A stretch of 64,000 nt of DNA, taken from the sequence record PV112478.1; one strand, 5' to 3'. This document shows, in pieces, positions 60,195 through 62,851 of this stretch; within the stretch, counting starts at the first letter, position 1; every line of letters starts with the position of its first letter. Source of the DNA: Klebsiella phage LPKP23. A program made the position numbers and the translations under genes. The notes below the pieces were generated by a model, which saw only the letters and a program-made list of their open reading frames with translations, ran no database searches and was not told the DNA's origin.

Positions 60195-61976
60195 TTACAA
60201 CCACTGCGCCGCACGTTGACGAATAGTACGAAGACTTTCCAGTACTTTCACGTCGCCGTTCAGGTACACAGTCCGCATCGCGTCAACCTCACTACCGCGA
60301 AGCGCTTCATACTCTTCACGGGTCAGGTTATCACGGAGTTCGAGTTTTCCGTTCTCGCCCTTCGCAACGATCAGATAACCTTTCGCTGATTTCTTAGTAC
60401 CATCGTCGGTTTTCGGGTTTTTCGCGATAGAGTAATGTTTACCGTTAACCTTCCCAGCGGTCGCCTTCATGGCGATGCCCAGGGTGTCACGGGTAACATA
60501 CTGGAATTCGAAACTGCCCACACCAAAGACCACGTTGGAACTACAGAACCCATTCGCTTTCAAACGAGAAAGGATCTGAGTCATGCGAGTCAATGTGATC
60601 GCATCCCCGTAGATCAAACCGACGTGAGGGTCCAGTTCTTTGTAACCCGCAGCATTGGTTGTCCCGCCGAAGATTTCAAAGAGGATTTGTACCGCCCCTT
60701 TTTTCTCTTCCAAAGAAATAGGTTTACCGCTTTTAGTCGAATAGAAAACGTTGTCGATACAATAGCATTCGTATCCGTTTTCAATAGAAAAACGACGAAG
60801 GAATTCTTCCGTCTTTTCTCGACCTATTTCGGAATAGAGCGTTTTTCCACCAATTCGCGGGTCAGGATAAATACCAGCGGAAAGATGATTATCGCCATCC
60901 CAAGTATAACCACAGAGGATGTGATACGGATTACCGCTATCCGGACGATAGACCAGTTTACCGTCACGCGCCATAATCGCATCTTTATTAGCGATGGCTT
61001 TGGTGGTGATGGTATCGAAGAAGTCGTTAGTATCGCTGACGAAGCTGAAAACGCCAGACGGATAAACTTCGGTGATCAGTCGACGTTGGAAAAGTTCTTC
61101 CGCTTTCGACAGTAGTTCCGCTTCAGTCGCATCGCGATATCCCGGAGTAGCTTGTAACTGCTCGACATAGACCGCGATATTCAGACAGGTCACACTGTGC
61201 TCTGTAGCGGGTACACTCCCGGCGATTTCAGAAATCGGCATATCGCCTTCTGGGTTATAAAAGCGATTCGCTGTCCAGACCGAAGGGAAGCTATCGCTCC
61301 CTTTGAAGTAGATCAATTGACCGACTGAACTGTTGGCATCATCGAACATCCCCGACATACCGCGCAGGGCGAAGTTATGGGATTGGTAGTCGATAAAGGC
61401 TTTTGCCGCACCCGTTTCGTTAGCGTACTGTTCTAACACTCGACGGAAGTGCAACGCTTTCGTTGCCAGCACACATGGCTTCCAGAGTTCGTTACTCCAG
61501 AGGTCTTCGAAATAACCCGTCAGCCACCCGAAGCCGTCAACTGTGTTTTCAATCGTCAGGAACGGAACACGAATAGGGACGAGTGAGCCTTCCGGCACCG
61601 CACGGATCTCCAGTGGGATATAACCCAGTTCGTGAAGCGCTTTCAGGTGAGCGGATTTCACCACACCTTTACCCAGAACACCGTCCATGTACTGAAGGTA
61701 TTCTGCCTCCGATTCGTTGAACGGCGCTTTAAAGAAGTTATCGAAACTCCCTACCAACCAACGCAGAACCAGGCGCTGCATTCCCATGAACACCGAACCG
61801 TCGAAGTCCAGTGGCGTATTGAAGTACGTATGGCTACGTGCCGTCAGGTTTTCAAAGAAGCTGTCAGTGCCCAGAGGTTGTTGGTTGATGTGCCCAGTTT
61901 TGTAGGCATCGCACAGCAGGAAAACCAGCGGATCTTCAGTATAGAACTTTGGGTCTTTCAGTAAAGGGTTGGTCAT
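60195..61976 (-). CDS. nadV: nicotinamide phosphoribosyltransferase (Nampt/NadV)
   Basis: 593 aa; N-terminal CDAYKTGH (DSYKxxH motif) and overall Nampt-like length; overlaps prs by 4 nt. Confidence 0.8.
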   Translation of the reverse strand: MTNPLLKDPKFYTEDPLVFLLCDAYKTGHINQQPLGTDSFFENLTARSHTYFNTPLDFDGSVFMGMQRLVLRWLVGSFDNFFKAPFNESEAEYLQYMDGVLGKGVVKSAHLKALHELGYIPLEIRAVPEGSLVPIRVPFLTIENTVDGFGWLTGYFEDLWSNELWKPCVLATKALHFRRVLEQYANETGAAKAFIDYQSHNFALRGMSGMFDDANSSVGQLIYFKGSDSFPSVWTANRFYNPEGDMPISEIAGSVPATEHSVTCLNIAVYVEQLQATPGYRDATEAELLSKAEELFQRRLITEVYPSGVFSFVSDTNDFFDTITTKAIANKDAIMARDGKLVYRPDSGNPYHILCGYTWDGDNHLSAGIYPDPRIGGKTLYSEIGREKTEEFLRRFSIENGYECYCIDNVFYSTKSGKPISLEEKKGAVQILFEIFGGTTNAAGYKELDPHVGLIYGDAITLTRMTQILSRLKANGFCSSNVVFGVGSFEFQYVTRDTLGIAMKATAGKVNGKHYSIAKNPKTDDGTKKSAKGYLIVAKGENGKLELRDNLTREEYEALRGSEVDAMRTVYLNGDVKVLESLRTIRQRAAQWL

Positions 61977-62851
61977 TTCACGCGTCCATCTTTAGCAGTT
62001 AAATAAGATTGGGTTGGTAACCCGTCGTCAGTGATATTTTCCCACCAAACGTTGGTTGAGAAAATCTGATCAAAAGCGATAGAGAGTTCGCCCAGGCCCT
62101 TAGAAAAAATTCCATGGGTCACGAAGAGACTGAGCGATTTCGGGTTTTGGGTATTGAGCTTTTTCGCCAGCTCAGTGAAAGTCCACCCACCATCGCAGAT
62201 GTCGTCGACAACCAACAAATTACGACCTTCGATATTGTCATTGTCCAATAACGTAATGTCGAGAATGTTGCCGGTTTTAGTATCGCGCTTTTTGTTTGCG
62301 TAAACGATAGGCACCCCGCCGAGTAGTTTTGCCAACTCTTCAGTTTTCTTCGCCGCACCACCGTCAGGGGAGACTAATACGACGTTATTTTCCCGAATCC
62401 AATTAGCCAATAAATTGTAGACAATTTTGGACTGTTCCAGGACGACGAGGTTTTTGATCAGTGCCGGAGTAACGTTAGAATGCGGATCGTGTATCAGCAC
62501 TCGGTCTGCTTTCAGGCTATTGAACAGTTCAGCAAAAACGCCGAGTGAAAACGATTCGCCTGCATTACAGACACGGTCTTGTCGCGCGTACGGGAAATAA
62601 GGCACAATTAAATGGAGTTCTGTTTTCGCAGTGTATTTCCCAATACGACGAATAGCGTCGACCAGTAACAGTAGACGCACTGCCTCGGTGGAAGATTTGA
62701 TACTTCCTTCTATTTTAACAACGCCGATATCATGGGGCGGTAGCCCATGACGGTTAATTGTGATATGTTCCTCGCCACCCGGAAAAGTCATATTCTCATA
62801 AAGGACCGGTTGGTCATCAAACGTAACTTTAAACATTGTAACCCCTTTCAA
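61973..62851 (-). CDS. prs: ribose-phosphate pyrophosphokinase (PRPP synthetase)
   Basis: FPGGEEHITIN (FSxGE-like) and PRPP-binding loop VVDDICDGGWT. Confidence 0.75.
   Translation of the reverse strand: MKGVTMFKVTFDDQPVLYENMTFPGGEEHITINRHGLPPHDIGVVKIEGSIKSSTEAVRLLLLVDAIRRIGKYTAKTELHLIVPYFPYARQDRVCNAGESFSLGVFAELFNSLKADRVLIHDPHSNVTPALIKNLVVLEQSKIVYNLLANWIRENNVVLVSPDGGAAKKTEELAKLLGGVPIVYANKKRDTKTGNILDITLLDNDNIEGRNLLVVDDICDGGWTFTELAKKLNTQNPKSLSLFVTHGIFSKGLGELSIAFDQIFSTNVWWENITDDGLPTQSYLTAKDGRVK

Follow-up and report, generated by a model that had tools for sequence, protein, structure and literature searches.

Analysis of the window, a 64,000 nucleotide stretch of the genome of Klebsiella phage LPKP23 (PV112478.1), revealed three consecutive genes on the minus strand: a DHFR ORF (62885–63424; 179 aa; PF00186, 102.9 bits; PHROG 316), a Prs-like gene (62836–61973; 287 aa; Pfam domains Pribosyltran and Pribosyltran_N) and a Nampt-like gene (61976–60195; 593 aa; Pfam domains NAPRTase and NAMPT_N). 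The ORFs are present as described in the original prediction, which had placed the DHFR gene after the other two; because all lie on the minus strand, DHFR comes first, and the order is DHFR, Prs-like gene, Nampt-like gene and a hairpin. The TGA stop codon of the Prs-like gene shares bases with the ATG start codon of the Nampt-like gene, and the predicted 4-nt ATGA overlap (minus strand, 61973–61976; gtgaaATGAcc) was thereby confirmed. The same overlap is seen in the annotation of phage KpLz-2_45, and the two genes are translationally coupled. The likely start of the Prs-like gene is ATG 62836, with the ribosome binding site aaagggg and a 287 aa product, and not TTG 62851, as is also annotated for relatives in the literature and in RefSeq. 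A gap of 48 nt with no hairpin separates DHFR from the Prs-like gene, and the pair appears to be co-transcribed with the upstream DHFR. The DHFR score was below all NCBIfam DHFR equivalog cut-offs, and the protein is therefore taken as a divergent phage DHFR. Comparison with KpLz-2_45 gave pN/pS values of 0.04–0.06 for the operon genes (0.060 for DHFR), indicating strong purifying selection.

On the plus strand, an ORF homologous to a KpLz-2_45 tail protein is open from ATG 63571, and the divergent intergenic region between it and DHFR (63425–63570) is presumed to be the promoter region of the three-gene transcript. A sigma-70 scan of this region found a sole, weak match (9/12), and such matches were no commoner than in shuffled sequences. 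At the other end of the operon, a hairpin (minus strand, 60145–60186) with a perfect 12-bp inner stem (60151–60178) lies 9–17 nt past the stop codon of the Nampt-like gene. The inner stem has a dG of −27.8 kcal/mol (z −4.56), and none of 200 shuffles was equally stable. It lacks a canonical U-tract and for that reason was not called by the consensus scan for intrinsic terminators, the matches of which were no commoner than in shuffles. At the place of the terminator originally proposed for the operon there is a strong hairpin after the last gene, which we presume to be the terminator or an RNA-stabilising end.

The operon had also been credited with its own upstream "module core". This element, TTTnATGTATATAT, occurs in exact form four times, always on the minus strand and 5′ of a minus-strand ORF; with up to two mismatches, 7 matches were found versus 2.0 expected. 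The local copy, CAATTTGTTTCATGTATATAT (minus strand, 60124–60144; repeat family D3, promoter-like), is located 3′ of the Nampt-like gene and the hairpin and hence upstream of the next gene (60051–59680). It belongs to that gene and not to the NAD+ operon, its orientation having been misread, and neither DHFR nor the Prs-like gene has a copy upstream. A further repeat beside the core, GTTATGCAA, with two copies 31 nt apart, was not significant (2 versus 0.46 expected; equalled in 9 of 100 shuffles). Two ORFs downstream of the operon (123 aa and 495 aa) have no Pfam or NCBIfam match; the 495 aa ORF matches one PHROG of unknown function and the 123 aa ORF matches none.

A Prs-like gene paired with a Nampt-like gene is the arrangement that defines NAD+ reconstitution pathway 1 (NARP1) (Osterman et al. 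2024, bioRxiv 10.1101/2024.02.11.579819). At this locus a Prs-family gene is followed by an adjacent, co-oriented Nampt-family gene with the ATGA overlap. In the NARP1 survey, a homologue of Namat (nicotinamide ADPR-transferase) adjoins 97% of the genes of the clade of Adps (ADPR-pyrophosphate synthetase) and rarely a bacterial prs gene (Osterman et al. 2024). Taking this architecture together with the sequence evidence given below, we consider it highly probable that the operon is the NARP1 of a Siatvirus-like Klebsiella jumbo phage.

The Prs-like protein (61973–62836) is best read as a predicted Adps. We based this assignment on profile scores, equivalog cut-offs and family signatures rather than on a broad tree; a contig scan with E. 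coli Prs kept 80 loci, all of them gammaproteobacterial Prs of at least 80% identity. Among the NCBIfam Prs models, the protein passes only the broad subfamily model TIGR01251 and failed all of the equivalog models, with scores of 65–107 bits against cut-offs of 296–536 (for example, 102.5 versus 297). An HMM built from four characterised Adps scored it at 190.7 bits, versus 87.7 bits for E. coli Prs. In pairwise BLAST, its scores against the Adps of Bacillus phages (94 and 80 bits) are no better than that against E. coli Prs (84 bits). The signatures of the Adps family are loss of the PRPS alpha11-alpha12 module, a catalytic Lys in a beta-hairpin and a conserved donor site in the PP loop (PMC13586617). 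Alignment found no equivalent of the C-terminal alpha11-alpha12 module of Prs in the window protein, and its PP loop (ICDGGWTF) and beta-hairpin (KKRDTKTGNI) match the pattern of Adps from phages of proteobacteria. Residues F18, R85, H119, D158, K182, D211 and D212 are conserved, and the essential Lys, K182, corresponds to K185 of ICP1 Adps and K162 of SPbetaL1 Adps.

The top-scoring of the characterised Adps compared was that of Vibrio phage ICP1 (UniProt F1D1Q1; 37% identity, 152 bits), in which the alpha11-alpha12 module is likewise missing (ICP1 structures, PMC13586617). ICP1 residues F18, R87, H121, D161, K185, D212, D213, C215, D216 and F221 are conserved in the window protein. The PP loop differs (ICDGAASF in ICP1). 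The ICP1 contact residues F92, F223 and A218-A219 are replaced by Cys, Glu and G-W, respectively, and S220 by Thr. The window protein also has a short C-terminal tail, WWENITDDG...GRVK, which is absent from ICP1 and common to Klebsiella phage 0507-KN2-1. Identity to the Adps of Bacillus phage SPbetaL1, whose PP loop reads DDLSSFGGTF, is 34% over 209 aa; there, too, the stop codon of Adps and the start codon of Namat are annotated as sharing one base.

The Nampt-like protein (60195–61976) is best read as a predicted Namat. Its best PDB matches are the crystal structures of SPbetaL1 Namat, 9W5W and 9W5X (401 bits), and its second-best structural relative is 9KE8/9KEO; mammalian NAMPT scored about 140 bits. 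By BLASTP it scored 430 bits against the Namat of Escherichia phage Bas63 (JohannRWettstein) and 383 bits against that of SPbetaL1, whereas each of two phage Nampts aligned with it only in two segments (83–101 bits), with 26–28% identity across the N-terminal part. [quoted passage not shown] It is present in the window protein as GSFEFQYVTRD (G487 to D497); F489 and Y493 occupy the positions that stack on adenine, and phi1, usually Thr or Ser, is an atypical Glu. The two compared Nampts lack this motif and have GGGLLQQLDRD and GGGLLQEVTRD in its place. The catalytic core is kept (H260, D228, R344 and D346), so that the Asp/His check proposed for this protein turned out positive, with D228 and H260 present and R344 in addition. 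The catalytic His, R306, F392 and Y396 of SPbetaL1 Namat correspond to H260, R344, F489 and Y493. In the variable clamp loop of Namats, the third residue (Arg, Lys or Tyr) stacks on adenine, and if it is Lys or Tyr, the fourth stacks. The window protein has an atypical third residue, Thr50, and its fourth residue, Tyr51, aligns with the stacking Trp43 of Bas63. Compared with SPbetaL1 Namat, the protein is extended by about 90 residues in two insertions (aa 267–292 and 357–425), and its clamp loop is four residues longer, without the stacking Arg40.

The same order of a Prs-like and then a Nampt-like gene is found in the NARP1 of Bas63 (genes 79–80), which was validated in vivo, whereas the window operon is known by homology. 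The two Namats are 45% identical, both are 593 aa long and they share the two insertions that are missing from SPbetaL1 Namat; their clamp loops are also alike (TYFNTPL in the window, KWFNSPL in Bas63). The two Adps are 34% identical and have a common DDICDGG-TF PP loop, in which the window protein has Trp where that of Bas63 has Arg. In Bas63 the genes are 45 nt apart instead of overlapping, and no DHFR lies upstream; Bas63 is an 87-kb Felixounavirus, while the window derives from a roughly 300-kb jumbo phage with a different host. In Vibrio phage Gary, the NARP1-AP locus encodes an Adps and a Namat that both show 37% identity to their counterparts in the window, with a Namat motif of the same type (GSFTYQYVTRD). 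Between them it encodes a Macro-domain ADPR-1″-phosphate phosphatase (Adpp), of which the window operon has none.

These analyses establish the structure of the genes, the families to which their products belong and the diagnostic residues. Its enzyme activities and anti-defence role are inferred from experiments on the homologues of Bas63, SPbetaL1, FADO and ICP1, and the functional claims rest on homology at 34–45% identity. NARP1 uses ATP to convert ADPR and nicotinamide into NAD+, with no NMN intermediate and no Nmnat (bioRxiv 10.1101/2024.02.11.579819); the biochemistry was worked out on SPbetaL1 (Osterman 2024). By homology, the operon would act once NAD+ has been split into ADP-ribose and nicotinamide by a host defence, for example SIR2-HerA, DSR1/2, type I Thoeris or SEFIR. 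In a step that uses ATP, Adps would add a pyrophosphate to the free ribose of ADP-ribose, which yields ADPR-PP. Namat would then swap the pyrophosphate of ADPR-PP for nicotinamide and yield NAD+ directly, neither NMN nor Nmnat being involved. The general idea of the original prediction, a phage NAD+ reconstitution module countering NAD+-depleting defences, therefore holds, and the route proposed, by Nampt plus Nmnat, does not, as the pair matches the pathway that bypasses NMN and Nmnat. The defences then credited to that route (Thoeris, DSR, SIR2 and SEFIR) are those shown for NARP1; type I Thoeris and DSR2 are the only systems against which NARP2, which consists of Nampt and Nmnat, was shown to act.

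A true PRPP synthetase and a Nampt would instead produce NMN, to be adenylylated by an Nmnat encoded elsewhere or by the host, as in NARP2. This is the way in which Pfam, NCBIfam, PHROGs and RefSeq name the two proteins, and as family assignments the Prs and Nampt identities were upheld; as enzymes the pair fits Adps and Namat. SPbetaL1 Namat does make NMN from PRPP in vitro, with about half of the NMN-forming activity of human Nampt, so that some Nampt-type activity of the window Namat is possible. However, NAD+ was the sole product of SPbetaL1 Namat when PRPP and ADPR-PP were offered together; no product of SPbetaL1 Adps could be measured in a Prs-type control reaction; and Bas63 NARP1 worked in a host without pncC and nadR (Osterman et al. 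2024). The NARP2 of Vibrio phage KVP40 resembles the window operon in having a Nampt-fold enzyme and in rebuilding NAD+ against depletion, but it uses PRPP, needs Nmnat and has no Adps partner, whereas the window has Adps and no Nmnat. The KVP40-type Nampt (PVA8 as representative) aligns with the window Namat in two segments of 28% and 34% identity and lacks the Namat motif that the latter has there. With that motif, with Namats as the closest characterised relatives by both BLAST and PDB, and with a Prs-like protein that has no Prs C-terminal module and passes none of the Prs equivalog models, a NARP2-like route is improbable. NARP1 and NARP2 were, moreover, found together in no phage by Osterman et al.

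No Nmnat was found in the window, as had been noted, either by tblastn with NadD, NadR and phage NadR-like queries or by a scan for the motif GxFxPxxxGH. Since NARP1 needs no Nmnat, this absence is expected rather than a gap, and for the same reason the lack of an Nmnat anywhere in the genome, which had been put forward as a refuting test, is irrelevant to function. The suggestion that an Nmnat partner may lie elsewhere was partly borne out in the closest relative, phage KpXa_1, which is 97.8–99.5% identical to the window in five blocks, with a best coverage of 85% for an 18-kb stretch. KpXa_1 encodes a NadR-like NMN adenylyltransferase (155772–156983; CTP_transf_like and AAA_28 domains), which belongs to a separate pair with a PnuC-like transporter (157128–157817; NMN_transporter domain). 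The two proteins are 62% and 48% identical to those of T5-like phage EscoHU1, and the enzyme combines NMNAT and RNK without an HTH domain and has an adjacent PnuC, as in NARP3. The pair lies about 42 kb from the NARP1 operon, outside the window, and its separate location with a transporter of its own speaks against a role as partner in a NARP2-like route. NARP3 of the T5-like phage Bas30, likewise a NadR-like and PnuC-like pair, serves the same purpose as the window operon with different enzymes and a different substrate, imported nicotinamide riboside; its homologue is found in KpXa_1 and not in the window.

KpXa_1 also encodes a Macro protein 34% identical to Gary Adpp, about 25 kb from the operon. 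Near the operon itself no Macro-domain (Adpp) gene was seen, the flanking ORFs having no Pfam match, and tblastn with Gary Adpp found nothing in the 64-kb window; the published "within two genes" rule would miss such unlinked Adpp genes. The lineage of Klebsiella jumbo phages may perhaps stack NARP1, a NARP3-type pair and an unlinked Adpp homologue, with possible cross-talk of NMN from Namat to the NadR-like enzyme, although we put this forward only tentatively. If so, the stacked set could protect against ordinary NADases as well as aRES-type systems. The searchable literature yielded no explicit mention of a genome that has NARP1 and NARP3 together.

Such cross-talk bears on a dual use of the operon, which would act mainly as NARP1 while residual NMN from Namat also feeds the phage NadR-like enzyme; in that case ADPR, PRPP and imported nicotinamide riboside would all serve the lineage as sources. 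The residual Nampt activity of SPbetaL1 Namat and the pair in KpXa_1 are in keeping with it, and NadR-like matches are also found in other groups of phages bearing NARP1 (ICP1, Lak and 144-kb Klebsiella phages). The argument is, however, drawn from the genome of a relative and not from that of the window; PRPP is not expected to come from Adps, and SPbetaL1 Namat with both substrates yielded NAD+ alone. We give dual use a slender chance. The presence of DHFR in the same apparent transcription unit, together with the broad NAD+ synthesis gene sets reported in jumbo phages (PMC11662467), might alternatively suggest a housekeeping operon (DHFR, Prs and NadV) supplying nucleotides and cofactors for replication of a large genome, with no counter-defence role. 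This is scarcely credible in view of the sequence features that identify Adps and Namat. DHFR is not a neighbour of the pair in Bas63, SPbetaL1 or Gary, and in the published experiments consulted NARP1 did not raise NAD+ without an active NAD+-depleting system, as free ADPR is then scarce.

As a NARP1, the operon is an ordinary and already catalogued case: KpXa_1 proteins identical to the window Adps and Namat are included in the tables of Osterman et al., the former among Prs/Adps homologues in Table S1 ("Namat within 10 genes: Yes") and the latter in Table S2 ("Adps-associated"). Mechanistically nothing is new, and only the presence in close relatives of a NARP3-type pair and an unlinked Adpp-like Macro protein, in addition to the operon, is mildly so. 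The main value lies in the correction of annotation, as the generic labels "ribose-phosphate pyrophosphokinase" and "nicotinamide phosphoribosyltransferase" persist in public records and profile libraries and lead readers to seek a missing Nmnat. If the operon is NARP1, the phage is predicted to be resistant to SIR2-HerA, DSR1/2, type I Thoeris and SEFIR, and this predicted resistance bears on the choice of phages against Klebsiella pneumoniae.

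The ORF listing of the window revealed that the region 60195-63424 is occupied by three ORFs, all on the minus strand: a DHFR gene (63424-62885, 179 aa; Pfam DHFR_1), a Prs-family gene (62836-61973, 287 aa; Pfam Pribosyltran and Pribosyltran_N) and a Nampt-family gene (61976-60195, 593 aa; Pfam NAPRTase and NAMPT_N). The Prs-like ORF as listed opens at a TTG at 62851 and ends at 61973; its start is most likely the ATG at 62836, because this codon is preceded by aaagggg and the resulting 287 aa product agrees with the annotation of relatives, both published and in RefSeq. The DHFR and Prs-like genes are separated by 48 nt with no hairpin in between, and the stop of the Prs-like gene and the start of the Nampt-like gene share the sequence ATGA. 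A divergent intergenic region of 146 nt (63425-63570) lies between DHFR and a tail-protein gene starting at 63571. At the other end, a hairpin follows the Nampt-like gene: its perfect 12-bp stem (60151-60178, minus strand) lies 17 nt past the stop, and an outer stem widens it to 60145-60186. The stability of the hairpin (dG -27.8 kcal/mol, z -4.6) is far above that of shuffled sequences; it has no U-tract and the terminator scan made no call there. From this minus-strand layout, the order of transcription is DHFR, Prs-like gene, Nampt-like gene and hairpin. The genes of the originally predicted operon are real, but they were read in the wrong orientation, and DHFR, which had been placed last, comes first. 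All three genes have a pN/pS of 0.04-0.06 when compared with the sister phage KpLz-2_45.

The 4 kb around the operon match 'Serratia phage' KpXa_1 (MN871449, 304 kb, infecting Klebsiella pneumoniae) at 100% identity and several sister phages at 95-96%, among them Klebsiella phage KpLz-2_45 of the genus Siatvirus. Over the whole window, five blocks align with KpXa_1 at 97.8-99.5% identity and three segments are replaced; no phage record matched the window in full, the best covering 85% of an 18-kb stretch. Thus the window comes from a phage that is closely related to the other members of this jumbo-phage group but distinct from them. The segments with no KpXa_1 counterpart are 25828-26252, 42991-45316 and 55343-57046. 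The second falls within an 887-aa ORF (42654-45317), for which relatives carry the annotation 'tail protein' or 'EPS depolymerase', and is probably a host-range cassette swap. An ORF at 41857-42444 (minus strand) is annotated in relatives as a 'DprA-like DNA recombination-mediator protein'; Roth23, a T4-like Klebsiella phage, has a gene annotated likewise 1.3 kb upstream of its Nampt gene, which may be a coincidence.

Pairs of 'Prs' followed by 'Nampt' genes of this kind were studied by Osterman et al., who found that the Pfam-based prediction of a PRPP to NMN pathway is wrong for these phage operons (bioRxiv 10.1101/2024.02.11.579819). In the pathway named NARP1, Adps converts ADP-ribose to ADPR-PP by pyrophosphorylation and Namat forms NAD+ from ADPR-PP and nicotinamide; purified SPbetaL1 Adps gave no measurable product in a Prs-type control reaction, and Namat given ADPR-PP and PRPP together yielded NAD+ as sole product (bioRxiv 10.1101/2024.02.11.579819). 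According to the same study, the Bas63 operon is functional in a host without pncC and nadR, and NARP1 overcomes the SIR2-HerA, type I Thoeris, DSR1, DSR2 and SEFIR defences. The Nampt and Nmnat of KVP40 constitute NARP2, a separate pathway of a distinct clade, and no phage carrying both NARP1 and NARP2 was found (bioRxiv 10.1101/2024.02.11.579819). The supplementary tables of Osterman et al. list KpXa_1 MN871449_00227 under Prs/Adps ('Namat within 10 genes: Yes') and MN871449_00228 under Namat ('Adps-associated'), and also include the sister phages KpLz-2_45, KpLz_1_41 and FBKp24. Since these two KpXa_1 proteins are identical to those of the window, the operon has already been catalogued as NARP1. 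NARP1 is very probably the correct, and is the best-supported, identity of the operon, as judged from homology, at 34-45% identity, to experimentally characterised enzymes together with diagnostic motifs. The proposed role in NAD+ reconstitution against abortive infection is thereby retained, but the mechanism and enzyme names are not, as the pair matches Adps and Namat.

An alignment of the Prs-like protein with the Adps of ICP1, Bas63, SPbetaL1 and FADO and with E. coli Prs revealed that it conserves F18, R85, H119, D158, D211 and D212, and that its K182 corresponds to K185 of ICP1 (structures in PMC13586617) and K162 of SPbetaL1, both shown by experiment to be essential. The PP loop DDICDGG-TF and the hairpin K-x-R-D-x-x-T-G-x-I are present as in Adps of proteobacterial phages. 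The PRPS C-terminal alpha11-alpha12 module, whose loss has been named a signature of the Adps family (PMC13586617), is absent from the window protein. Among the ICP1 contact residues, F92 is changed to C, F223 to E and A218-A219 to G-W. A profile of four characterised Adps scored the window protein at 190.7 bits versus 87.7 for E. coli Prs. By NCBIfam, the broad TIGR01251 alone passes, and the protein scores far below the cut-off of every Prs equivalog model. Pairwise BLAST gave 152 bits to ICP1 Adps, 133 to Bas63 and 84 to E. coli Prs; the Bacillus-phage Adps (94 and 80 bits) are no nearer than E. coli Prs. Sequence sampling for a Prs tree yielded gammaproteobacterial Prs only. The PP loop also contains Trp218 (ICDGGWTF), at a position occupied by Arg, Ala or Gly in the other Adps compared, and the C-terminal tail WWENITDDG...GRVK is found in Klebsiella phage 0507-KN2-1 as well.

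The best solved relatives of the Nampt-like protein were PDB 9W5W and 9W5X (401 bits), which are structures of SPbetaL1 Namat (PMC12774641), with mammalian NAMPT at about 140 bits. In BLASTP, Bas63 Namat gave 430 bits at 45% identity and SPbetaL1 Namat 383 bits. The two Nampts compared, from Vibrio phage PVA8 (KVP40-type) and Roth23, aligned only in two segments each at 83-101 bits, with 26-28% identity in the N-terminal part. The published Namat motif, GSX-phi-X-phi-X-phi-TRD, in which the aromatics at positions 3 and 7 stack on adenine, appears in the window protein as G487-SFEFQYVTRD-497; the PVA8 and Roth23 Nampts read GGGLLQQLDRD and GGGLLQEVTRD at this position. Catalytic His260 and Arg344 (corresponding to R306) are conserved; the original prediction had asked whether a NadV alignment keeps the catalytic Asp/His residues, and Asp228 is present as well. 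The clamp loop TYFNTPL resembles KWFNSPL of Bas63, its third residue, Thr, being atypical, and Tyr51 aligns with the stacking Trp of the Bas63 protein. Compared with the SPbetaL1 Namat of the crystal structures, the window protein has insertions at aa 267-292 and 357-425, about 90 residues in total, with no Pfam domain match. Bas63 Namat has the same length (593 aa) and the same two insertions, with a conserved E/S-x-GYE patch. No mention of the insertions was found in the structural paper on SPbetaL1 Namat, in which the word 'insertion' is absent. The second-closest solved relative (302 bits) is a chain of PDB 9KE8/9KEO labelled 'nicotinamide phosphoribosyltransferase', which is devoid of the Namat aromatic motif and reads GAQTYQRNTRD. 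Separately, Shigella phage Ag3 FJ373894_00125 is listed as an Adps-Namat fusion (Osterman Table S1), and the 547-position profile of PHROG 12872 matches the window Adps at residues 1-222 and the window Namat in its C-terminal part; such a fusion is either natural or a frameshift/annotation artefact.

A Nampt-based route would call for an Nmnat, which had been noted as missing from the window and suggested to lie elsewhere in the genome. Its absence was confirmed: tblastn of the window with E. coli NadD, NadR and a phage NadR-like protein found nothing significant, and no window ORF contains the GxFxPxxxGH nucleotidyltransferase motif. This absence is expected under NARP1. A NadR-like Nmnat does exist in KpXa_1 (MN871449.1, 155772-156983; 403 aa; NMNAT and RNK domains, Pfam CTP_transf_like and AAA_28; no HTH), directly followed by a PnuC-like transporter gene (157128-157817). 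The pair is located about 42 kb from the operon, outside the window; compared with the corresponding pair of a T5-like phage, identity is 62% for the NadR-like protein and 48% for the transporter. Adjacent NadR-like and transporter genes are the arrangement published as NARP3 (PMC13464706). A partner outside the window therefore exists in the lineage, though as part of a different pathway that draws on nicotinamide riboside. NadR-like matches were also seen in other NARP1-carrying groups (ICP1, Lak and 144-kb Klebsiella phages), mostly in different records per group.

The operon had also been credited with its own upstream copy of a repeated module core. The promoter-like repeat TTTnATGTATATAT has four exact copies in the window. 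Each is on the minus strand, immediately 5′ of a gene of that strand, and three belong to a 60-nt module that is repeated between divergent genes. The module copies are located at 6509-6568, 27465-27524, 30395-30454 and 49696-49755. On the minus strand the module core reads CAnTTTTTTTnATGTATATAT; the 14-nt core has four exact copies, and the module with its core probably represents a class of phage promoters. The copy near the operon (60124-60144, minus strand) lies past the Namat hairpin and precedes the next gene (60051-59680), and no copy is present upstream of DHFR or Adps. The claim arose because the locus had been read in plus-strand orientation. A family of GC-rich hairpins is located at 121-151, 4228-4270, 7866-7908, 22675-22702, 28109-28151, 48452-48479 and 53706-53733; they have an A-run before them and, in several copies, a T-run after (e.g. 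AAAAAAAAAGAGAGGGGTAACCCTCTCTTTT), and they look like bidirectional intrinsic terminators. The Namat hairpin differs from this family in having no U-tract.

The two genes downstream of the operon, encoding proteins of 123 aa (59680-60051, minus strand; pN/pS 0.16) and 495 aa (58161-59648, minus strand; pN/pS 0.08), are conserved in relatives. Neither protein has a Pfam or NCBIfam match, and the only PHROG match, at the N-terminus of the 495-aa protein, is to a PHROG with no assigned function. Both genes fall inside the 'two genes' zone searched for NARP1 accessory genes. Certain NARP1 operons include Adpp, a Macro-domain phosphatase acting on ADPR-1''-phosphate, which counters the aRES defence (bioRxiv 10.64898/2026.01.28.702374), and others adjoin a gene for a RyR-domain glycosidase. 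Neither was found near the operon, where the flanking ORFs have no Pfam match, and the Adpp of Vibrio phage Gary had no match anywhere in the 64-kb window. In KpXa_1, a Macro protein of 157 aa (173397-173870), 34% identical to Gary Adpp over its full length, is encoded about 25 kb from Adps and Namat. Members of its family occur in about 2,600 phage records, T4-like phages (T4 tk.4) among them, and because it is so widespread, the putative connection with NARP1 is an unproven lead. The published criterion, 'within two genes', would overlook a gene at that distance. In the searchable literature, no genome was found to be explicitly reported as carrying both NARP1 and NARP3; multi-gene NAD+ repertoires of jumbo phages have been described in a general way (PMC11662467). 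It is conceivable, if rather unlikely, that this lineage stacks NARP1 with a NARP3-type pair and an Adpp-like phosphatase encoded at an unlinked site.
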